Assembly: GCA_963844845.1 (NCBI GenBank)
Contig: CAWJPW010000005.1
Span: forward strand, 181,661-245,660
Direction of reading: 5' to 3'
DNA from: an uncultured Acidobacteriota bacterium
GTDB taxonomy: Bacteria > Acidobacteriota > Thermoanaerobaculia > Thermoanaerobaculales > Sulfomarinibacteraceae
Length of the DNA stretch: 64,000 nucleotides
A program made the translations under genes and the position numbers. Positions 45,424 through 60,161 of the stretch are shown here, one piece after another (position 1 is the first letter of the stretch; every line of letters begins with the position of its first letter). Under the pieces are notes generated by a model. The model ran no database searches. It was not told the DNA's origin and saw only the letters and a program-made list of their open reading frames with translations.

Positions 45424-45818
<395 letters not shown>

Positions 45819-50039: not shown

Positions 50040-51119
50040 CTACCCCGGCGTGTCGAAACGCACGTCCACGTCGAGGCGACGGAGCTTCTTGAAAAGACCC
50101 GCCCGGCTCAGGCCCAGCCTCTTGGCCGCCTCCGTGCGGTTGCCGCCGCAGTCCACGAGGACCCGAGCCACGAGCCAACGCTCGACCCGCTCCCTCGCCT
50201 GAGCCAGAGGCAGTGAGGGAAGCTCGTGGAGGGCCGGGACAGGCACGCTGCCGACCGGCTCGAGGCCCGCGGACGGTGAGGGCGTCTCGAACTGGTGCAA
50301 TCGGGCTCGCCCGAGCACCGCATCCACTGCCGCCATCAACGCTCGCATGTCGGCCACCGCCGGAGGATCCTCGGTGAAACGAACGAGCAGGACGTAGTTG
50401 CGGCGCAGACTGGCGAGCAGGGCCTGCTCCCCCTCGGCGGCGAGCTGGCGCACGGTATGGCTGCCCTGCGACGAGGCGTGCTCGCGGACCAGCTGCCCGA
50501 GCGTGACCTCGGCTCCGAGCAGCCGCCCCAGGTCTCCGGCGCTGGCGGCCATCGCCACGGCCCGGTCGTCGTCGCGATAGAGGACCATCGCGCCCTCGAA
50601 GGAGAGCCGCGCCACCGCGAAGTCGAGGAGATCGCTGAGATCGCCGCTCCGGGTGGCGTTGGCCGTCTGCTCGAGCAGGTCGACCATGTCCTCCATCGAT
50701 GCGTCACTCCGGTAGTGCATCGTGTCCTCGCGCTCCGGCTCGGTCTCGAGGGGCAGGTTGCTCCCACTCTCCGGACTCTCACGGAGACCGAGCTGATCGA
50801 GCCGGTAGCTCCCGCTCGTCACCTCGAGAATCACCATGGCCGCCGACGACACGTTGAGCTGGTCGCCACAGCGGAGCTCGCTCGCGGCCACGCGCTGACC
50901 GTTCACGAACGTCCCGTTCTTGGAGTTGAGGTCGGTGACGTGGAAGACCTTCCCCAGCTCGCTCACCTCGAGGATCGCGTGATGCCGCGAGACGTCCTTG
51001 TGCCCGAGTACAACGTCGTTGTCCGGACGGGAACCGATCCGGTAGGCTCTTCCGGGCTGCAGCTCGTACCTCTGCTCACCCTGCTCCGGGCGGCTGTACA
51101 CGAGGACGTAGTGTGTCAT
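50040..51119 (-). CDS. FHA-domain transcriptional regulator with C-terminal Fis-type HTH
   Basis: The N-terminal FHA has YRIGSRPDNDVVLGHKDVSRHHAIL...NSKNGTFVNG. The C-terminal GGNRTEAAKRLGLSRAGLFKKLRRL is an HTH_8. The central 170 aa are unassigned. Confidence 0.8.
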   Translation of the reverse strand: MTHYVLVYSRPEQGEQRYELQPGRAYRIGSRPDNDVVLGHKDVSRHHAILEVSELGKVFHVTDLNSKNGTFVNGQRVAASELRCGDQLNVSSAAMVILEVTSGSYRLDQLGLRESPESGSNLPLETEPEREDTMHYRSDASMEDMVDLLEQTANATRSGDLSDLLDFAVARLSFEGAMVLYRDDDRAVAMAASAGDLGRLLGAEVTLGQLVREHASSQGSHTVRQLAAEGEQALLASLRRNYVLLVRFTEDPPAVADMRALMAAVDAVLGRARLHQFETPSPSAGLEPVGSVPVPALHELPSLPLAQARERVERWLVARVLVDCGGNRTEAAKRLGLSRAGLFKKLRRLDVDVRFDTPG

Positions 51120-51169
51120 GTCTTCTCCACCCCGTTAGCGGGGCTCGACTTGTCTCCTGACCGTGCTGG

Positions 51170-51198
51170 ATTGTGACATTGCCGAGAGGGCATTACAA
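51170..51198 (-). promoter_or_regulatory. Sigma70-like promoter candidate TTGTAA-N17-CACAAT for the FHA regulator gene
   Basis: The minus strand reads TTGTAATGCCCTCTCGGCAATGTCACAAT, about 50 nt upstream of ATG 51119. Confidence 0.4.
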
Positions 51199-51210
51199 CT
51201 GGGGCCTCCG

Positions 51211-51894
51211 TCACGCGACCCGCGACGAACGGCTGACCAGGTATCCCGAAGGAGATCCCGGCACGAAGCGAAACTGCAGCCGCACGTCCCCCTGGTTGGC
51301 CTCGACCACTGCCGCCCCCTCGGAGACGCTGCGCAGGCTACGGCTGGCACTCTGCATCACCCGCGCTCGCAGCAGACGCGACACCTCCTCCATCTGCGCG
51401 AGATCCTCGAGCAGAAGCGTGATACGCAGGCTGCGCTCGAGGCCCACCATCAGCTGCCGTACGACCTCGTCGAAGGCAGCAGCCATCGCTTCGAGGCTCA
51501 GGCCGCCGCTCCCGAGCAACCCCAGAGGCTCCAGCGCCAGGGATTGGAGGCCGCGGCGAGCCGCATCGGCGGCCACCGCCAAGAGGGCCCGCTGGACGTC
51601 ACCCGGCCGGGCAGACGGCCGTTGATCAAGGTCGTGCACCACCGCCTGATACATCCAGTATGGCCGCTGTTCGCTGGGCCTGAGCACGAGATAGCGACCC
51701 AGCGGAACCGGCCTGAACGCGGCCAAGGCAAGGTAGGCGGAGGCGAGGCTGTCGCTCTCGTCGAGGTCGAGGACGGGCGGCGAGCTCAGCACCAGGTTGC
51801 GGTCCTCCTGAACCACCAGGGCGTCGGGGGTGAGACGTCGACCCGGCGAGTCGTGGAGGTCGAGCTCCCAGCGCACACACGATGAGACAGTCAC
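51211..51894 (-). CDS. Hypothetical protein (227 aa), no family recognised
   Basis: GTG at 51894 lies 6 nt after a TAGACT box. GC3 is high throughout. It sits between the ClpX-like ATPase and the FHA regulator. Confidence 0.5.
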   Translation of the reverse strand: MTVSSCVRWELDLHDSPGRRLTPDALVVQEDRNLVLSSPPVLDLDESDSLASAYLALAAFRPVPLGRYLVLRPSEQRPYWMYQAVVHDLDQRPSARPGDVQRALLAVAADAARRGLQSLALEPLGLLGSGGLSLEAMAAAFDEVVRQLMVGLERSLRITLLLEDLAQMEEVSRLLRARVMQSASRSLRSVSEGAAVVEANQGDVRLQFRFVPGSPSGYLVSRSSRVA

Positions 51895-51900
51895 CCGATC

Positions 51901-51906
51901 AGTCTA
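51901..51906 (-). promoter_or_regulatory. -10 box TAGACT 6 nt before GTG 51894 (leaderless-type promoter)
   Basis: The minus strand reads TAGACT-gatcgg-GTG. Confidence 0.4.
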
Positions 51907-51952
51907 CTCCACCGGATCAGGCCGGCCCCAGACGCACACCCGGGGCCGCACC

Positions 51953-53098
51953 CTACAGTGCACGGCGGACCAGGTCGGCGGTGACCACCAGCCTGTGCCC
52001 CGATCCCTCGCGTTTCTCGAGGCCCTCGAACTTCCACGGGTCGAACTCCAGGCGGTTGATGATCTTGCCGAAGATGGTGCGGAGCGCCCGGGCGCCAGTA
52101 CGGGTGTTCTTCTCCGCCTGCTCGGCGATCAGGGCCGCCGCCAGGTCCTCCATCTCGAGCTCGATGTCCATCACCTCGAAGTAGCGCTTGGAGCGCACGA
52201 ACGGGGAGTCCACCGAGCGCAGCAGGATCTCCTTGAGCACCTCGCCGGAGAGATCGCGCAGCAGCACCACGTTGTCGAAGCGGGCCATGAACTGCGGCAC
52301 CATGCCGTAGGTGAAGAGGTCTTCGGGCTTGAGAAAATCGGCCAGGGCAAAACGCGTCTCGATGCGCACCTGCCCGTCGGCGGTGCGGATCGCCTGCGAT
52401 TTCATCTTCTCGCCGCTGCCCGGCTTGGCGACTCGAAAGTAGACCTGATCGTAGAGGCCCTCGAACGCACCGCCACAGATGAACATCATCCCCTTGGTGT
52501 CGATGTCCAGGGTGACCGGGCGCTCCTCTCCGTCCACCACGGCGTGAGTCCGGAAGGCCACTCGCTCCCCCTCCATGAGGGTGAGCAGGCCCTGCTGCAG
52601 CACCACACCCAGTGGGTTCGGTTTCCCCGCCACCACCGCTGCCATCTTGTCGATCTCGTCGATGCAGATGGTGGCGCGCTCCATGGCGCTCTTCAGCGCC
52701 TCCACCGTCGAGTCGCTGCCGAGAATCGCTCGCGCGCGCTGCTCCACCGCCGCCAGCAACCGGTCGGGTCGGAACTCCAGGCGATCCGGGTCCACCAGCA
52801 GGTTCGCGTTGATGATGGTCATGGCCCGGAACCGGTCGTACTCGGCAACGTCGTGGTAGAGGCGCTGAACGTTGTTCATGATCGTCGTCTTGCCGGTACC
52901 CGAGCTGCCGATGAGCAGCAGGTTGCCTGGCACCTTGCCGGTCACGTGCTTGTAGATCGCCACCGACACGTAGCGCAAGGCGCCGTCCTGTCCCAGCACT
53001 CCCCGCCCGAGCTCCTGGAAGATCTGAGGCGGAGTGATCTCCTCGAGGCCGCGCAGAGACCCAGCCGACTGCTCGGCCGCGCTTCGGTCAGACGTCAT
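51953..53098 (-). CDS. ClpX-like AAA+ ATPase lacking the zinc-finger N-domain, the GYVG pore loop and the IGF ClpP-docking loop
   Basis: ATG at 53098 with a GGGGAGGA SD. ClpX-like TPPQIFQEL...VLGQD, Walker A GSSGTGKTT, Walker B ICIDEIDK, GVVLQQGLLTLMEG, MFICGGAF, GMVPQFMARFDNVVLL and TGARALRTIF. No Cys4 N-terminus. NANLLVDPDRLEF sits where TEAGYVGED lies in ClpX. Confidence 0.75.
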   Translation of the reverse strand: MTSDRSAAEQSAGSLRGLEEITPPQIFQELGRGVLGQDGALRYVSVAIYKHVTGKVPGNLLLIGSSGTGKTTIMNNVQRLYHDVAEYDRFRAMTIINANLLVDPDRLEFRPDRLLAAVEQRARAILGSDSTVEALKSAMERATICIDEIDKMAAVVAGKPNPLGVVLQQGLLTLMEGERVAFRTHAVVDGEERPVTLDIDTKGMMFICGGAFEGLYDQVYFRVAKPGSGEKMKSQAIRTADGQVRIETRFALADFLKPEDLFTYGMVPQFMARFDNVVLLRDLSGEVLKEILLRSVDSPFVRSKRYFEVMDIELEMEDLAAALIAEQAEKNTRTGARALRTIFGKIINRLEFDPWKFEGLEKREGSGHRLVVTADLVRRAL

Positions 53099-53148
53099 GG
53101 ATCCTCCCCTGTCTCCGGGTGAACCATCGCGAGGTCCGTCCCCCATTC

Positions 53149-54348
53149 TCAGCTCCCCTCGACGACCCAGACGCCATCGCTCGGCACCAGCGCCACGTCG
53201 TCGATCATCACCCGGCGCCCACAGCCGCCAGGCCGGAAGTCGGCAACGATGTCGACGTGCTGCGCGGAGCGGTTGAGCACGCCACGCTCCTCCAGCCGGC
53301 GCAGACGCTCCCGTCCCTCCGCGCCGCCCGGGTCGTCCACGAAGCAGTCCTCGTAGCTGGCGCCGATCGCAATATGCAGCGTTCCGCCGACCTTCTCCAC
53401 CAGCAACGGGTGCTTCAACGCGCGCTCCAGCCCGGGGTTCATGCCCAGCGCCACCTCGCCCAGCCGGTGCGAGCCTTCGTCCGTCTCGACGATGGCCGCG
53501 AGCTGGTCGCCCCCCTCCGCTGCCCTGTAGCTCACGATCCGTCCGCCGCTGAAGGCCAGCTCGATGCCCCGCATGTCGCGGCCGCCGTAGTTCACCGGAA
53601 GGTCCAGATAGATCTCGCCCTCCACGCTGCCGGCGTCGGGGCTGGTGAAGATCTCTCCGTCCGGGAAGTTACGCAGACCGTACGAGAGGCGAGGCAGGCC
53701 CTCGTTCAAGGCCATCGTGAGCACCAGCTCACGACCGTCGTCCGGGTGCTCGGTCACCACCGTCATGGTTCGGCCGTTTTGGAACAACGGCGCGAGCCGC
53801 TCCTCCGCCGCCCGCAGCGGGCGCGGATCGGTGGTTGATGCCTTGACCAGGAAGCGCGTGTACTCCGCCAGATCCATACCCTCCATCGCGGCAAATGCCG
53901 GCGTCGGGTAGAGCGTCAGCACCCACGGCTTGCTCAAGCGGATATCGGCAAAGGCACGATCGGCGGCGGCGAGCCCGCGCACCTGCTCCGGCGTGAGACC
54001 CGTATACCTCGCGGGGTCCTCTGCGCCGAGCACCTCCACGTACTTGGTCATGCTTTCGTAGCGCCCCCGGTGCCACGCCGGTACGCGCTCGAGCTGCTGA
54101 GGACCTGCGTGCCTCGCCACGGTGGCCGACCACACGCGTCCCCGCTCGTTGTCAGGCGGCACGAGGTAGACATCGGGGACCGCCCCGGCGTTCGCCACGC
54201 GACGCTGGAGCGCCTCGAGGAGCGGCCAGCAGATCCGCTCGCCTTTGAGCATCACCCGGTCGTCGGGAGAGATCCCTCCGAGGGAGTGGTCGAGCAGCAA
54301 TGCGGCCCAGACCTCGAGATCGTCAGCAGCGATGTAGGCTTCCTGCAC
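53149..54348 (-). CDS. M29-family aminopeptidase (AmpS/PepS-like)
   Basis: GTG at 54348 with a GAGGGGG SD. NFPDGEIFTSP, GEVALG and GGTLHIAIG motifs are typical of thermophilic metalloprotease M29. Confidence 0.8.
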   Translation of the reverse strand: MQEAYIAADDLEVWAALLLDHSLGGISPDDRVMLKGERICWPLLEALQRRVANAGAVPDVYLVPPDNERGRVWSATVARHAGPQQLERVPAWHRGRYESMTKYVEVLGAEDPARYTGLTPEQVRGLAAADRAFADIRLSKPWVLTLYPTPAFAAMEGMDLAEYTRFLVKASTTDPRPLRAAEERLAPLFQNGRTMTVVTEHPDDGRELVLTMALNEGLPRLSYGLRNFPDGEIFTSPDAGSVEGEIYLDLPVNYGGRDMRGIELAFSGGRIVSYRAAEGGDQLAAIVETDEGSHRLGEVALGMNPGLERALKHPLLVEKVGGTLHIAIGASYEDCFVDDPGGAEGRERLRRLEERGVLNRSAQHVDIVADFRPGGCGRRVMIDDVALVPSDGVWVVEGS

Positions 54349-54376
54349 ACAGCCCCCTCGCGCGCAATGCGCGCAT

Positions 54377-54382
54377 ATTGTA
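54377..54382 (-). promoter_or_regulatory. -10-like TACAAT box upstream of the aminopeptidase gene, followed by a GCGCGC-ATT-GCGCGC hairpin
   Basis: The minus strand reads GTTACAATATGCGCGCATTGCGCGCGAGGGGGCTGTGTG. Confidence 0.3.
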
Positions 54383-54572
54383 ACGAACTTCCGGGCGCGG
54401 ACGACGCGCCGAGTGCCCTGTTTGGGAAGTCCGATGTGCTATTCGCGCAGCCAGCGTGGTTCCTGGCAAGGCGCGACGACGAAGTCGTAGCAACGCTACT
54501 TCGAGGAGGAGCGACGCAGCCAGGGGCCGCGATGACAAGCGGTTAGTCCATTGGGACTTTCCAAACAGGTCA

Positions 54573-55703
54573 CTAGCGCGAACCCCCCTGGTATGGCACC
54601 GGGACCGGCGGCGGCTGCAGCGTCGGCCGCTCCCGCAGGGGTTGGGGCGGTCGTTCCACGCCACCGGCTCGCGCGACGAACACGGGAATCCTCAGCGGGG
54701 CCCCACCAGGTTCGTCGGTGGTCACCGTGACCGTTCCATGAACCACGCCGGGGACCTTCTCCGCATCGAGCCCCGGAGCCAGCACCACCGTGACACGGTG
54801 CTCGGTGGCCTTCTCGTTCCGGGCCGCGGAGTGAGCGACGAAGAGCTCGGGGTTGCTCGACTCCAGCGACCGCACCCGAAATGCCCGGCCCCGGTTATCC
54901 ACGAGCCTCACACCCATCTGCGATGGCGTCCGCCCCGGCTCTCCCACGACGAAGCGCAGCTGGCGTGGCTGGACCTCCACGACCGGGCGAATCCGCACCG
55001 CCACGGGGTAGGTCACCACTGGGTCCTTGTCGACGTTGACGGGAATGCTGAGCCTCACGATGCGGACGCTGGCGTCGTCCTGGGGCGAGACCTTGAGGAC
55101 CAGCGAACGCTGGCTCGAAGGGTGCCCGTCCGCAGCCGGCATCACCGTAGCCTCCAGCAGCCCCGGAGGGTTGGAGGTGACGGCGCCGATCTCCAGAGGC
55201 TTCCCGTCACGTCGGCTGAGGGTCACCGTCGTCGTCGCCCCCTGCCCCACCACCGCGTCCACGGCCGCCCGCGAGGCGGGCTCCGTCACGACCAACGGCT
55301 GAACCGTGAAGCTGAGCTGCAGCCGCAACGGCTGGACCCCTACCTCGTCGGTCTCCACCAGCACCGATTTCGTCAGATGCCCAGCCTGGTTGGCATGGGT
55401 TGCAACCTTTGCCACGAGCTTTCCCGACCCACCTGCCGGGATCACCGAGTCGAACTCGGCGACAGTGCAGCCTCAAGAGGGTTTTGCCTTGATGATTTTG
55501 ACCACTCGGTCGCCGGGGTTGTGGAGCACGAAGGTCGCCACCGCGGGCTCACCTGCGGGGACGGTGCCCAGCTCCACAGTCGCACTCTCTGGCTTGAGCA
55601 CGGTGGTCTTCGGCGGCACCGGCGTCGTCTGGGCCAATCCGCTCACGGCCCCCAGGGGCGCCGCGGCCAGGAGCAAGGCGAGGGCCGCACTTCGTGTCGT
55701 CAT
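54573..55703 (-). CDS. Secreted DUF1573-domain protein interrupted by one in-frame TGA (55473-55475) at the first Cys of the conserved SCGCT motif. Selenocysteine candidate or pseudogene.
   Basis: ATG at 55703 with GGAGG 5 nt upstream. Signal peptide MTTRSAALALLLAAAPLGAVSGLA. The sequence reads ...VVKIIKAKPS-TGA-GCTVAEFDSVIPAGGSGKL... with both halves in the same frame (1131 nt in total). Track ORFs 55473-55715 and 54573-55445 are the two halves. Confidence 0.6.
55441..55463 (-). other. Hairpin starting 9 nt downstream of the in-frame UGA (SECIS-like position)
   Basis: The RNA GUCGCCGAG-UUCGA-CUCGGUGAU forms a 9-bp stem including two G-U pairs, with a 5-nt loop containing G. Confidence 0.25.
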
Positions 55704-55755
55704 CAAGGCCTCCATGGTGTCACCCGTGGTGCAGGCGCACCGCAGGTCCGCACGG

Positions 55756-55761
55756 ATTGTA
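55756..55761 (-). promoter_or_regulatory. -10-like TACAAT box upstream of the DUF1573 gene
   Basis: The minus strand reads TATACAATCC, about 50 nt upstream of ATG 55703. The same TACAATCC octamer occurs at 57698-57705. Confidence 0.35.
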
Positions 55762-55783
55762 TACGAGACTCGGGGTAACGGTG

Positions 55784-56878
55784 TCAGTTGGAGAGCTCTA
55801 CCGCGCGCTGCCGCAGCTCCTCAGCCCTGACCTTGTAGCGCTCGGCAAGACGGCCGCGGCCCGCTCGTCGCGCCCAGCGCGCCAGCGCCTCGTAGGTCTC
55901 GGGAACAGGCCGGAAGCCCCGCCGCGCCCGCCGTAGGTGCTTGTGGGCCGACTCGAGATCACCTCGCGCCATCTCGGTGTCTGCCAGGGCGATGAGCGAG
56001 AACGGGCTCGACGGCCCCTCGGCGGCCGCGTCGAGTGCCGTCCTCGCCTCGTCGCTGCGGCCCAGCTGGGTGTAAAGGTAGGCGAGATTGGTGAGCGCCG
56101 AGGGGTTGCCCGGGTCCGCGACGAGCGCTTTCTGATACGCCGCGAAAGCACCCTCGACGTCGCCCGCCCGACGCCGCGCGACGCCCAGGTTGATCCACGC
56201 GGCCGCCAGGTTCGGCGCAAGGCGGGCTGCCTGCTCGAACAGAGAGCGGCTGCCGGCAACGTCGCCATGTTGAAGGCGCATGCTGCCGCGATTCACCGCG
56301 AACATCGCGCTGGCAGCCACGTCGTCGACGATGACGTGCCGCACATATGGCACCTCGGAGCTGATGTAGAAGTCGAACAGGTGCATGGTGCCCGCCTGCG
56401 TGAATCCGGCGACCACGTGCCGATTCACGATAACGAGGCTCTCTTCCTTGGCGACATCGAGGACCCGGTCGACGGAGACCAGGAAGGTGCGGTAACCGAG
56501 GGTCCGCGACAGGGCGACGAACAGGGACGTGAACGACAGGCAGTTGCCCCGTCGTTCGGCAAACGCCTGCTCCGCCGTGAGGTTGATGTTCTCGTCGTAG
56601 GTGAAGTCAAACTGGCCGGGGTCGAACAGCACCTGCTGCAGTCGGCGCAACGTACCGAGCTCGCCGGACGCCTGGCTGGTGACGGCCCGCGCCCAGCTGG
56701 CCATTTCCGGGGTGGCGGCGAAGGGGTACACGACCTCCTCGGGATCCAGCCCGCGCGCCCGCACCTCGCTTCGCCAGCGATCGTGCCCGAGCGCCAGCTC
56801 CCCGGGCCCGGTGCTGGCACAGCCGCCAGCCGTCACCAGCACCAGCGGAAGCACGACGCGAGCAGCGATCCTCTTCAT
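55784..56878 (-). CDS. Lipoprotein with transglutaminase-like cysteine-protease-fold domain and C-terminal TPR repeats
   Basis: ATG at 56878. Signal with LVTAGGC. The RRGNCLSFTSLFVALSR ... NRHVVAG ... FD pattern is a Cys-His-Asp transglutaminase-like core. TPR repeats include AWINLGVARRRAGDVEGAFAAYQKALVADPGN. Confidence 0.7.
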   Translation of the reverse strand: MKRIAARVVLPLVLVTAGGCASTGPGELALGHDRWRSEVRARGLDPEEVVYPFAATPEMASWARAVTSQASGELGTLRRLQQVLFDPGQFDFTYDENINLTAEQAFAERRGNCLSFTSLFVALSRTLGYRTFLVSVDRVLDVAKEESLVIVNRHVVAGFTQAGTMHLFDFYISSEVPYVRHVIVDDVAASAMFAVNRGSMRLQHGDVAGSRSLFEQAARLAPNLAAAWINLGVARRRAGDVEGAFAAYQKALVADPGNPSALTNLAYLYTQLGRSDEARTALDAAAEGPSSPFSLIALADTEMARGDLESAHKHLRRARRGFRPVPETYEALARWARRAGRGRLAERYKVRAEELRQRAVELSN

Positions 56879-56884
56879 CCAACT

Positions 56885-56890
56885 TCTATA
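56885..56890 (-). promoter_or_regulatory. -10-like TATAGA box 6 nt before ATG 56878 (leaderless-type geometry)
   Basis: The minus strand reads TATAGA-agttgg-ATG, with no SD. Confidence 0.35.
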
Positions 56891-56919
56891 CGCGCGGCAC
56901 ACCGCCGAGGTTACGAGAA

Positions 56920-57675
56920 CTACGAGAACGACGGAGGATTCTCACGCAGCCAGCCGAGGTAGCGCACCAGGAGATCGAGCTCGGTGGAGTCGAGACGGTC
57001 GCCGTATGCAGGCATGCTGAGCACCGGTCCGGGGAGACCGGGGACGGGTGTGTGCGTCGGAGTCGATCCCCGACGAAGAATCTCCTCGAGCCCGGCCGCC
57101 TGCGCCGCGACGAAGTCCGGGCCGAAGAACCCCGGCACCCGTCCCTTGAGACTCCCAGGGTTGGCAACACCGCCGCCCCCGAGGACACCGTGACAGCTGA
57201 AGCAGCCCATCTGCACTGCGATGTCGTGCCCGGCCGCGAGCTCCTGATCCTCGGGAACCCCCACCAGCCCGGTCATCCCCCCCACAGCGACCGCCACATC
57301 CTGCCACTCCCCCGCGCCCAGCCGACTCCCGAACGCCGGCATCGCCTGCAGCCTGTCACCGACAGCCGGGCGCCCGTTGAGAATGGCGTCGCGCACCACG
57401 AGCAGCGAGGGCGGCAACGAGCCGTCCGCCCGCCAGAGCAAACCGCCCCCGGCCTCTCGGTGACAACCGGTGCAGCCCTGTGCCTCGAGCAGGGCGACGC
57501 CACGCTGCACCGCGCTGCTGTCCTCGCGCCCCCACCACCAGCGGTACACCGGTAGTGCCAGCACCGCGACCAGCACCAACGCCGTCACCACCCAGGCGAG
57601 GATGCGGCCCGGCCGCACCGACCGCTTTCCGCGGGTCGAGCTCTTGCCGCCGCGCGCCCGCTGCTGTCGAGCCAT
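56920..57675 (-). CDS. Membrane-anchored dihaem c-type cytochrome
   Basis: ATG at 57675 with GGAGG 5 nt upstream. N-terminal basic segment plus a TM helix. Two CxxCH motifs (CTGCH, CFSCH). Confidence 0.75.
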   Translation of the reverse strand: MARQQRARGGKSSTRGKRSVRPGRILAWVVTALVLVAVLALPVYRWWWGREDSSAVQRGVALLEAQGCTGCHREAGGGLLWRADGSLPPSLLVVRDAILNGRPAVGDRLQAMPAFGSRLGAGEWQDVAVAVGGMTGLVGVPEDQELAAGHDIAVQMGCFSCHGVLGGGGVANPGSLKGRVPGFFGPDFVAAQAAGLEEILRRGSTPTHTPVPGLPGPVLSMPAYGDRLDSTELDLLVRYLGWLRENPPSFS

Positions 57676-57699
57676 GAGCACCTCCGAGATCGCGGCCGG

Positions 57700-57705
57700 A
57701 TTGTA
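57700..57705 (-). promoter_or_regulatory. -10-like TACAAT box for the cytochrome gene, back-to-back with the helicase promoter
   Basis: The minus strand reads GCGCTACAATCC, 24 nt upstream of ATG 57675. Confidence 0.35.
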
Positions 57706-57734
57706 GCGCTTTCCGCCTCATGAGCGCTCCGGCA

Positions 57735-57740
57735 TAGAAT
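57735..57740 (+). promoter_or_regulatory. -10 box TAGAAT 6 nt before GTG 57747 (leaderless-type promoter)
   Basis: TAGAAT-gcccgg-GTG, with no SD. Confidence 0.45.
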
Positions 57741-57746
57741 GCCCGG

Positions 57747-60161
57747 GTGTCGCTGGACGTCGATCTCGAGGCCCGCCGGGTGCGGGCCAGCGTTCGCGAC
57801 CTCCTGGGCGAGGGGGCGCAACGCGTCATCGGGCTCTCAGGGGGAGGCCTGTCGAGGCTGTGGATTGGGCAGGAGCTGCACCGCCGGGTGCAGGCGAGCC
57901 TGGCTGCTGCGGAGCGAGGCTACCGCAGCGAGGTCCCTGCCGCGGCCACGTTCCAGCTGGACGGGTGGACTCTCGAGCTGGAGGGCCGGGCCGATGGACT
58001 GCTGGCGCGCGATGGACTCGTCGTCCGGGTGGACGAGATCAAGACGCTCCACTTCGCCGTCGATCTCTACAACCTGTACGCCAACGAGCGGCTCGAGCGC
58101 TTCCGGCAGCAGGCGCGGCTGTACGCCCTCATGCTCTCCCCCGCCGAGGCCCCGGCTGCGGTGCGTCTCATTCTGGTGGACATCGTTTCCGGCGATGAGC
58201 GGATCGAGGATGTCCCGTTCAGCCCGGACGCCTCCCTCGCCTTCCTGCGCCAGCAGGTCCATCGCCTCCTCGCGGCGGAGCAACGACGAGTCGCACGCCT
58301 GGCGGAGCTGCGCATCACTGCCGCCGCGCTTCCCTTCCCTCACCCGGAGCCGCGCCCGCTGCAGCTCACCGTCGGCGAGGCGGTCGACAGCGCCCTGGCG
58401 GCCGGCCGGCACCTCCTCCTGGCGGCGCCCACAGGCACCGGTAAGACGGCGGCGGTCCTCCATCCCGCCCTCCGGGCCGCGCTGGCTCGCGGGCGTCGGC
58501 TCTACGTCCTCACCGCGAAGACCCTGCAGCAGCAGCTCGCGGTCGAGACTCTCCGCTCCATGCAGCGCCACGGCGCACGCTTTCGCAGCCTGCAGCTGCG
58601 CTCCAAGGCGAAGATGTGCATCAACTCCGAAATGGTGTGCCACGAGGAGTTCTGCCCTTACGCGCGCGATTACGCCCTCAAGCTGGTCCGCTCCGGCCTG
58701 CTGCCGACGCTGCTCGCCAGCGACCACGTCGATCCCGACGTGGTGCTCGACGCGGCCCGCCAGCACGAGGTCTGCCCCTTCGAGGTGACCCTCGACCTGC
58801 TCGCCGACATGGACGTCGTCGTGTGCGACTACAACTACGTCTTCGACCCCACCATCGGCCTCGCCGCCCTGCTCCACGAGGGGGCCCTGCGGCACGCGAT
58901 CCTGGTCGTCGACGAGGCCCACAACTTGGTGGAGCGCAGCCGGGAGTACTACTCGCCCGCTCTCACCGAGGCGATGCTGCGCCGCGCTGAGGCGTTTCTC
59001 GCCGCGCGCACGGCGCCGGTCTTCCGGCGCCTGGCCGAGCTGGTTGCGACCCTCGCCGAGCTGCTGCACACGACCGTGGCCGACGCCTTGGAGGAGGCGA
59101 CCCAGGAGGACGCCGTCGTGGAGCTTCCGGGCGCCGACCTGGCCGACCTTCGGCTCGCTCTCGACGCCGCAATGCTGCAGTACTTCCTCTACAAGCGGGA
59201 GCACGAGCTGTGGCTCGCTGACGATCCCCCCATGGAGGTCTTCCTCACGCTCACCCGCTTCCATCGAGTGCTGAGCCTGGGCGGCGACGAGTTCGTGCAC
59301 CTCGCCTCCCGCGGTGGCGCCGAGGGCGAGCGCATCCGCATCGTGTGCCGCGACGCCTCGCGGTTCATCGGCGAGATCCTCGAGGAGAGCGCCGGGGTCG
59401 TCGCCATGTCGGCAACCCTGGAGCCTTTCGAGTTCTACCACGACGTCCTCGGCTTCGACCGTCATCGCACCGATACACTGCGGGTGCCCTCGCCGTTCCC
59501 CCCCTCGCACCGCCTCGTCCTTGCCATCGACGAGGTGGACACGAGCTACCGCCGCCGCGCCGCCCACTACGACGACATCGCTCGTTGGGTGGGCGGCCTC
59601 GCTCCGCCCGGTCACAACGTGCTGGCATTGTTCCCGAGCTACGCCTTCCTGCGCCAGGTGCACGACCGTCTCCCCCCCACCCCACACCATGTTCTGGTAC
59701 AGGAGCCCGGCTCCAGCGACGCAGTGCAGCGGCGCTTCCTCGCGGCCCTGTCCAACGGCGAGGCCCACCTGGTGCTTGCGGTGCTGGGAGGCGTCTTCGC
59801 CGAAGGAGTCGACTACCCAGGCGAGATGCTGTCACAGGTGATCGTGGTGTCGCCGGGCCTGCCGCAGTACAACGCCGAGCGCGAGCTCCTCAAGGCCTTC
59901 TACCAGGAGCGCTACGGCCGTGGTTTCGAGTACGCCTACCTCATCCCTGGCCTGACCCGGGTGGTACAAGCGGCCGGGAGGCTGATCCGTTCCGAGACCG
60001 ATCGCGGCGTCATCGCCCTGGTGTGCAGGCGCTTCCTCCAACCGCAGATGGTCAGGCTCCTGCCCCCCGACTGGGTCGACGGCGACGCCGAGAGCCTTCG
60101 CCTTGCGGACCCCATTGCCGCCGTGCGCGCGTTCTTCGGTGACGATCGAGCGGGCTCTTGA
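57747..60161 (+). CDS. Fusion of an N-terminal PD-(D/E)xK (RecB-like) nuclease domain with an XPD/DinG-family Fe-S DNA helicase
   Basis: The nuclease-like part has GRADGL ... VDEIKT ... QQARLYALM (D, ExK, QxxxY). The helicase part has APTGTGKT, four Cys (C-INSEMV-C-HEEF-C ... EV-C-PFE) between Walker A and the DEAH box, VVDEAHNL, and C-terminal QAAGRLIRSETDRG. Confidence 0.75.
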   Translation: MSLDVDLEARRVRASVRDLLGEGAQRVIGLSGGGLSRLWIGQELHRRVQASLAAAERGYRSEVPAAATFQLDGWTLELEGRADGLLARDGLVVRVDEIKTLHFAVDLYNLYANERLERFRQQARLYALMLSPAEAPAAVRLILVDIVSGDERIEDVPFSPDASLAFLRQQVHRLLAAEQRRVARLAELRITAAALPFPHPEPRPLQLTVGEAVDSALAAGRHLLLAAPTGTGKTAAVLHPALRAALARGRRLYVLTAKTLQQQLAVETLRSMQRHGARFRSLQLRSKAKMCINSEMVCHEEFCPYARDYALKLVRSGLLPTLLASDHVDPDVVLDAARQHEVCPFEVTLDLLADMDVVVCDYNYVFDPTIGLAALLHEGALRHAILVVDEAHNLVERSREYYSPALTEAMLRRAEAFLAARTAPVFRRLAELVATLAELLHTTVADALEEATQEDAVVELPGADLADLRLALDAAMLQYFLYKREHELWLADDPPMEVFLTLTRFHRVLSLGGDEFVHLASRGGAEGERIRIVCRDASRFIGEILEESAGVVAMSATLEPFEFYHDVLGFDRHRTDTLRVPSPFPPSHRLVLAIDEVDTSYRRRAAHYDDIARWVGGLAPPGHNVLALFPSYAFLRQVHDRLPPTPHHVLVQEPGSSDAVQRRFLAALSNGEAHLVLAVLGGVFAEGVDYPGEMLSQVIVVSPGLPQYNAERELLKAFYQERYGRGFEYAYLIPGLTRVVQAAGRLIRSETDRGVIALVCRRFLQPQMVRLLPPDWVDGDAESLRLADPIAAVRAFFGDDRAGS

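Follow-up and report, generated by a model that had tools for sequence, protein, structure and literature searches.

OS_HP2 was described as a new selenoprotein family in the metagenome of the Olavius algarvensis symbionts (PMC1976440, Zhang & Gladyshev 2007), and the Global Ocean Sampling study listed it as "OS_HP2, pfam07610, UxC," with 2 selenocysteine (Sec) sequences and 354 Cys homologues (PMC2398784, 2008). Its hosts are Deltaproteobacteria, and its Sec was predicted from an in-frame TGA together with a downstream stem-loop. The canonical bacterial element of this kind, the selenocysteine insertion sequence (SECIS) of Escherichia coli fdhF, has a spacing of about 11 nt and carries G23/U24 in its loop. 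Here we analyzed a 64-kb stretch of contig CAWJPW010000005.1 from an uncultured Acidobacteriota bacterium (the window, meaning the whole stretch), in which a minus-strand gene of the DUF1573 family, 55703 to 54573, is interrupted by a single TGA. Comparative sequence analysis indicates that this TGA is almost certainly a real Sec codon with recoding hairpins. The gene itself very probably encodes a secreted DUF1573-family protein with Sec as the first cysteine of its C-G-C motif (U77-G78-C79), inserted by standard bacterial UGA recoding. The Sec reading is supported because the TGA recurs, because it aligns with Cys, and because the RNA structure is conserved only in TGA forms.

The original prediction had proposed precisely such a U-G-C form of DUF1573 with a SECIS hairpin, and these same three lines of evidence support it. 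Its remark that such a selenoprotein was not known to be described turned out to be wrong, given OS_HP2 (PMC1976440 and PMC2398784) and its NCBIfam model NF041425. What we describe is thus a new, large Acidobacteriota branch of an already known selenoprotein kind.

A recurrent TGA at the DUF1573 cysteine motif

The features of the gene are as follows.

54573-55703, minus strand: predicted selenoprotein gene, complete from ATG (55703) to the TAG stop (54575-54573), with 376 residues, one of them Sec
55709-55713, minus strand: Shine-Dalgarno-like GGAGG with a 5-nt spacer to ATG 55703, from direct sequence reading
55629-55703, minus strand: N-terminal signal-peptide-like segment, MTTRSAALALLLAAAPLGAVSGLAQ, read from the sequence; orthologues have similar hydrophobic N termini
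55317-55592, minus strand: DUF1573 (PF07610), an ASH/HYDIN-type immunoglobulin (Ig)-like domain, residues 38-129, containing U77-G78-C79; Pfam match
55473-55475, minus strand: in-frame UGA, read as selenocysteine (U77); aligned with TGA in 96 loci versus TGC/TGT in 35 more distant homologues
55467-55469, minus strand: TGC codon of Cys79, partner of U77 and the sole Cys of the window protein by Cys count

Translation of 54573-55703 confirmed that the 377-codon frame has exactly one internal stop, the TGA at 55475 to 55473. Its context in the protein is AKPS-TGA-GCTVAEFDSVIPAGGSGK, that is, KPS-TGA-GCTVAEFD, and full-length homologues read P[ST]-C-G-C-T at this point, which places the TGA in the Cys column as the original prediction had stated. 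ATG 55703 is a plausible start codon supported by the upstream GGAGG. At the other end, the TAG stop (54573-54575) is followed at once by an in-frame TGA (54570-54572).

With U read as C, the window protein matched PF07610 with an E value of 4e-14 and 52.8 bits, against a gathering threshold of 26.1, and is therefore a member of this family; the HYDIN/VesB/CFA65 Ig-like model of Pfam also matched, overlapping PF07610. The best NCBIfam match was NF041425, "OS_HP2 family (seleno)protein" (64.3 bits, model positions 6-97 of 98). By the definition of Zhang & Gladyshev (PF07610 plus UxC), the protein belongs to OS_HP2, with U77-G78-C79 lying inside the PF07610 match. The two also resemble each other in the position of Sec, in the way Sec was predicted, and in having C-G-C in their Cys homologues. 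They differ in their hosts, which in the clade of the window protein are Acidobacteriota (Thermoanaerobaculia, Holophagae, Sulfomarinibacteraceae), and in the two further Ig-like domains that homology predicts for the window protein.

A protein search with the read-through sequence returned nine closest homologues that extend over only about 70% of the query and lack a DUF1573 match, while more distant homologues were full length and carried PF07610. The products of the closest relatives in the public protein collection are truncated fragments of 283 to 338 aa without a domain match, and the annotated products include a 290-aa remnant (P0001). The corresponding DNA of two relatives, 38 to 40% identical to the window protein (L001 and L002), contained a short upstream open reading frame (ORF) in the same frame as the downstream ORF, with a TGA between them at the identical motif position.

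We then relied on two scans. The genome scan, restricted to one genome per species and based on peptide patterns taken from Sec forms (GC[ST]VAE[FY]DS and VIPAGGSGK), gave 51 loci, nearly all from Acidobacteriota metagenome-assembled genomes (MAGs) labeled Thermoanaerobaculia, Thermoanaerobaculales, Holophagae, or Sulfomarinibacteraceae. The metagenome scan, whose pattern GC[ST]VAE[FY]D is common to Sec and Cys forms, gave 80 loci, 45 with TGA and 35 with Cys. Overall, TGA stood at the motif position in 96 loci (the window, L001, L002, 48 genome loci, and 45 metagenome loci), including all 48 orthologous loci of species-representative genomes (L003 to L050) found with the Sec-derived patterns. 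The TGA forms are 31 to 40% identical to the window protein, and identity within the set is only about 30 to 40%. The more distant homologues had a Cys codon at this position (TGC in 29, TGT in 6), and the genome scan also returned two distant Cys forms, from Bacteroidales and Pirellula (L052 and L053). The original prediction had suggested looking in relatives for a recurring TGA with its hairpin, as opposed to TGC with no conserved hairpin. The former was observed: the TGA recurred at the identical position in the 96 loci, and the TGA forms carry a conserved RNA element.

Both gene ends lie on the contig in 70 orthologous TGA loci, and in every one of these the frame was open before and after the TGA, with medians of 76 residues before U and 304 after it, and the half of the domain upstream of the TGA was conserved in the alignment. 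Hence, as expected of a selenoprotein, the UGA aligns with Cys in homologues, and the UGA and its flanking open frame are conserved across species, here in a set gathered with Sec-derived patterns. In a neighbor-joining tree of the domain, 91 of 93 Sec forms fell into one clade without any Cys form, indicating long-term retention. More speculatively, the absence of Cys forms among these 91 members might reflect a functional need for selenium in this predicted secreted protein.

The other two Sec forms, L100 and L116, paired together among the Cys forms. Both come from soil metagenomes (L100:787 and L116:468) and have D-K rather than D-S after the motif; they may represent an independent Cys-to-Sec conversion. 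One further locus, L016 (DATHSO010000150.1), comes from a MAG labeled Candidatus Methylomirabilota, and yet its Sec gene is of the Acidobacteriota type and has both hairpins of the element in full, which could be due to a binning or taxonomy error or to horizontal transfer.

Exactly one Cys beyond the N terminus was present in 60 of 70 Sec-form orthologues and exactly two in 23 of 29 Cys forms, in which the C-G-C pair usually provides the only cysteines. In the window protein, U77 and C79 would be the sole selenol/thiol pair. P0011, the full-length Cys homologue closest to the window protein, gave a confident AlphaFold model (mean pLDDT, the predicted local distance difference test score, of 90.9). 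In this model a disordered signal region is followed by three consecutive all-beta domains, and the C-G-C occupies a short loop (residues 75-78) flanked by strands 67-74 and 79-83. By homology to this model, which supplies the two extra domains, the window protein is predicted to be secreted and to consist of three Ig-like domains, its N-terminal segment presumably being a signal peptide. Sequence searches detected no solved DUF1573 structure in the PDB, and a fold search returned generic ASH/HYDIN, titin, and cadherin Ig arrays alone, with no clue to function. Judging from the motif and its predicted location, the U-x-C pair may act as an extracytoplasmic redox site or as a metal/chalcogen-binding site.

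A conserved RNA element downstream of the UGA

Two hairpins follow the UGA.

55441-55463, minus strand: hairpin 1, 10-bp stem with invariant core GCCGAG/CUCGGY and apical loop at +22 to +26 from U; fold and alignment
55423-55440, minus strand: hairpin 2, 6- to 7-bp stem CCCGGC/GUCGGG and loop with conserved GGU, abutting hairpin 1; alignment

A hairpin 9 nt after the TGA had been predicted and was present at the expected place, 55463-55441. In the window RNA it reads GUCGCCGAG(U)-UCG-(A)CUCGGUGAU; the UGA is followed after 9 nt by its extended stem and after 12 nt by its invariant core. Across TGA forms the loop is U(U/A)(C/U)GA, with an invariant G. Hairpin 2 extends the conserved element past 55441, where the original prediction had ended it, so that the whole element measures about 40 nt, spans roughly +13 to +53 relative to the U of the UGA as two adjacent hairpins, and occurs in TGA forms only.

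Conservation was assessed in 77 non-redundant TGA-form sequences, counting positions from the T of the TGA. Third-codon positions were 88 to 100% invariant from +16 to +54, compared to 38 to 73% outside this region (+6, +12, and +15; +60 to +75). Positions 18, 21, 27, 30, and 51 were 100% invariant, position 48 was 99% invariant, and positions 39 and 45 were 88% invariant. The codons fixed in this way (GCA, GGT, GGG, TCG, and GGA) are rare for a GC-rich genome, and three of them are fixed in hairpin 2 (GGT, 88%; GGG, 99%; TCG, 100%).

Cys-form DUF1573 proteins, which come from Acidobacteriota, Bacteroidota, and Planctomycetota, resemble the Sec forms in domain, signal peptide, and three-domain architecture, but they have TGC or TGT, D-K after the motif, and ordinary GC-rich codons at the sites of the element. 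Where Sec forms have GAC-TCG (D-S), Cys forms have GAC-AAG (D-K), which removes the complementarity of stem 1 and leaves them without hairpin 1. In line with this, the mean minimum free energy of the 57 nt downstream was -24.3 kcal/mol in TGA forms (z = -1.3) and -17.7 kcal/mol in Cys forms (z = +0.1), and that of the hairpin 1 region was -13.0 versus -5.1 kcal/mol, the two sets being equal in G+C content.

The two-hairpin model paired 91.5% of cells (94.9% in hairpin 1 and 86.6% in hairpin 2), compared to 28 to 48% when the 3' partners were slid by 1 to 3 columns. None of 500 shuffles reached the observed percentage paired, the number of cells changed on both sides, or the covariation score. 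Changes on both sides were seen in five pairs, with individual compensatory events in L003, L006, L016, L037, L069, and L010. In stem 1, an A-U pair became G-C in L003 and L006, which entailed two amino acid changes, G·U became A-U in L006 and L016, and G·U became G-C in 10 sequences. One stem 1 pair, formed by two wobble positions, varied freely (GC 24, CG 18, UG 6, AU 2, UA 1, unpaired 26). In stem 2, G-C became U-A in 3 sequences, and the closing pair was CG in 28 and UA in 5 but an A·G mismatch in the window. In L100 and L116 the top of hairpin 1 was opened, while its base and hairpin 2 were retained. RNAalifold, unaided, recovered only the invariant cores of both stems. The strongest evidence from the RNA thus comes from the freezing of synonymous sites and from the comparison with Cys forms, rather than from the covariation statistics. 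Taken as a whole, the region has what is expected of a bacterial SECIS, namely, a stem-loop about 10 to 12 nt after the UGA with a G in its apical loop and conservation beyond coding needs. No Rfam family matched the element, the search giving noise hits with E>5 only.

We propose that the UGA at 55475 to 55473 would be recoded via the standard bacterial pathway, in which SelB carrying Sec-tRNA(Sec) would be recruited by an mRNA structure within the coding sequence just downstream, here the two abutting hairpins. Like the canonical fdhF-type SECIS, the element is a stem-loop structure that lies within the coding sequence immediately 3' of the UGA, and the placement of its core (12 nt) and loop (+22 to +26) is similar. 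It differs in having two abutting hairpins instead of one and in carrying GGU, a loop sequence familiar from E. coli fdhF and from work on the Moorella SelB-SECIS complex, on hairpin 2, whose loop starts about 39 nt from the UGA, beyond the usual spacing. We describe the element as a putative tandem two-hairpin SECIS, in which hairpin 1 would occupy the canonical position and hairpin 2 would supply the GGU loop sequence. A more speculative proposal, which we regard as rather unlikely, is that this is a genuine SECIS of two hairpins, in which nearly every nucleotide is conserved over a class-level clade, with the SelB-type GGU on hairpin 2 about 39 nt from the UGA and hairpin 1 serving as a rigid spacer or pausing element. 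The retention of hairpin 2 in L100 and L116 would fit a scheme in which hairpin 2 is indispensable.

Weighing the readings of the in-frame UGA

Several observations weigh against reading the UGA as Sec. We found no DUF1573 protein in which Sec has been demonstrated experimentally. None of selA, selB, selC, and selD was found in the window or in the fetched flanks, and the machinery is assumed to be present in the genome. The original prediction had already noted the lack of sel genes in the window, and our searches agreed: no tRNA was found in its 64 kb, no tRNA-Sec was found in the flanks of 40 loci, and tblastn searches of the window and of 914 kb of loci for homologues of the E. coli proteins SelA, SelB, and SelD returned only a generic GTPase-domain match, located in a Cys-form locus (L096). 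No Logan contig of the window's strain crosses the A at 55473, since its contigs end at 55418 and resume at 55533; the contigs that do cross the TGA belong to other strains. The count of 48 TGA loci out of 48 partly reflects ascertainment, as the genome-scan patterns favor the Sec clade. Taken alone, the window hairpin is unremarkable at 69% GC (66 nt, z = -1.02, 31 of 200 shuffles as stable), and it gains significance only via comparison with other sequences. Covariation is limited, with an RNAalifold covariation term of only -0.08, as conservation is so strong that most pairs are invariant. Finally, the 64.3 bits of the window protein fall short of the curated NF041425 cutoff of 100, which leaves it outside the family as defined by that model. 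Nine other clade members or relatives, aligned over nearly the full model, scored 61 to 93 bits, and these low scores are probably why the gene is called as two ORFs. The clade is a close sister group of NF041425, outside it by the NCBI threshold.

Acidobacteriota in general are recorded in the literature as Sec users, and we found no literature on Sec use specific to Thermoanaerobaculia. Actual Sec insertion, and the presence of selA, selB, selC, and selD in the genome, is what we infer.

Two alternatives had been raised with the original prediction. The gene could have been inactivated by a fresh nonsense mutation, a recent change from TGC to TGA. TGA is indeed one nucleotide from TGC and TGT, gene callers split or truncate the gene and leave remnants such as the 290-aa P0001, and the window has no detectable sel genes. 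However, a recent lesion cannot be common to a class-level clade, and the identical TGA was found in 96 loci and 48 species-level genomes at 31 to 40% protein identity, with open frames on both sides and a conserved domain half before the TGA. Nor does the gene resemble a pseudogene, which would show a lineage-specific lesion and relaxed constraint: the TGA is clade-wide, the frames are intact, and constraint near the site is stronger than elsewhere. We therefore consider this alternative effectively excluded by recurrence. The same degree of improbability applies to a sequencing or assembly error at 55473, with C or T as the true base. The site is not covered by any contig of the window's own strain, which would leave room for such an error, but independent assemblies from many studies and technologies all have TGA there, and the window carries the complete downstream element specific to TGA forms (GAC-TCG and the rare GCA, GGT, GGG, TCG, and GGA), which is absent from Cys forms. 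Recurrence of the TGA together with this RNA element effectively excludes a base error.

A third alternative, still improbable but the least improbable of the four, is that the UGA is decoded or bypassed without Sec. Conserved programmed termination could yield a 76-residue product, with translation of the C-terminal part reinitiated, or the codon could be read through by a standard tRNA (for Trp or Cys); the hairpins would then signal a pause or read-through. Sec insertion in the DUF1573 family is a prediction and the Sec machinery in this genome an assumption, and the GTG at 55445 could in principle restart translation. Against this, a split would, according to the model, cut a single Ig-like domain in the loop before the strand with the TVA residues of the motif, which seems implausible. 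Moreover, the UGA stands exactly at a conserved Cys beside a second Cys, the classic Sec/Cys signature, the hairpin 1 loop at +22 to +26 fits the geometry of the E. coli fdhF SECIS, and the family is curated as a selenoprotein family. Least credible of all is a genome-wide reassignment of UGA (genetic codes 4 or 25) that would make this TGA an ordinary sense codon. Nothing specific speaks for it. TGA is the commonest stop in the window, ending 17 of its 28 long coding-like ORFs, including the gene immediately upstream, and this stop-codon usage refutes code 4 or 25. Thirteen in-frame TGAs in the window have coding-like sequence on both sides, and the one in the DUF1573 gene alone has a Cys or redox motif beside it. 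The same in-frame TGA scan, which recovered this gene as a positive control, gave no credible case of a second selenoprotein gene in the window. Selenocysteine thus remains the reading that we favor for the in-frame UGA.

Gene neighborhood and implications

The gene lies in the order dihaem cytochrome c, transglutaminase-like/tetratricopeptide repeat (TPR) protein, Sec-DUF1573 gene, M29 peptidase, AAA ATPase, hypothetical gene, and FHA-helix-turn-helix (HTH) regulator. The cluster, which is conserved in a Thermoanaerobaculia sub-clade, spans 50040-60161, further includes a DEAD_2 helicase, and is also found in L007, L009, L017, L023, L026, and L033. Its members include an M29 aminopeptidase, an AAA_2 ATPase, a 227-aa protein without a Pfam match, and a regulator with FHA and Fis-type HTH domains. 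This neighborhood is common to only about 9 of the 51 genome loci, all of Thermoanaerobaculia type, whose AAA ATPase is 74 to 79% identical to that of the window. We therefore rejected the cluster as a family-wide functional association; its occurrence in Thermoanaerobaculia-type loci places the window organism in that group.

The spacer between the stop of the selenoprotein gene and the M29 peptidase gene (54400-54580, minus strand) contains an imperfect palindrome of about 170 nt. Its arms, CCTGTTTGGAAAGTCC (54554-54569) and CCTGTTTGGGAAGTCC (54417-54432), occur nowhere else in the window. It folds with -83.2 kcal/mol, compared to -60.9 ± 4.2 kcal/mol for shuffles (z = -5.3, 0 of 200), and had no Rfam match at the gathering score. 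The equivalent spacer in L002 has only 30 nt, which indicates that the palindrome is lineage specific. It is perhaps an insertion resembling a miniature inverted-repeat transposable element (MITE) or a repetitive extragenic palindromic (REP) sequence, a structured terminator, or a small RNA. Elsewhere, the window contains a bacterial RNase P RNA of class A (45431-45810, minus strand; 279.8 bits, full model length).

The near-invariant SECIS region, about 65 nt long, breaks assemblies: the Logan contigs leave a gap there (55418-55533), and L050 and L051 are the two halves of one MAG gene, split between two contigs at the element. A conserved element that fragments metagenome assemblies in this way matters for the reading of MAG fragments.

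The significance of these findings lies mainly in annotation, as what looks like a broken gene almost certainly encodes a real selenoprotein and is deeply conserved, in a family branch that is routinely misannotated as two broken genes. A lower NF041425 cutoff or a clade-specific model would correct dozens of genome annotations. The analysis also provides a large natural alignment of one putative bacterial SECIS, with 77 non-redundant sequences and, as controls, Cys forms without the structure. Such a model change would extend the range known for the family to Thermoanaerobaculia and Holophagae, and the work draws attention to a predicted secreted selenoprotein whose U-x-C would be its sole redox-capable pair.

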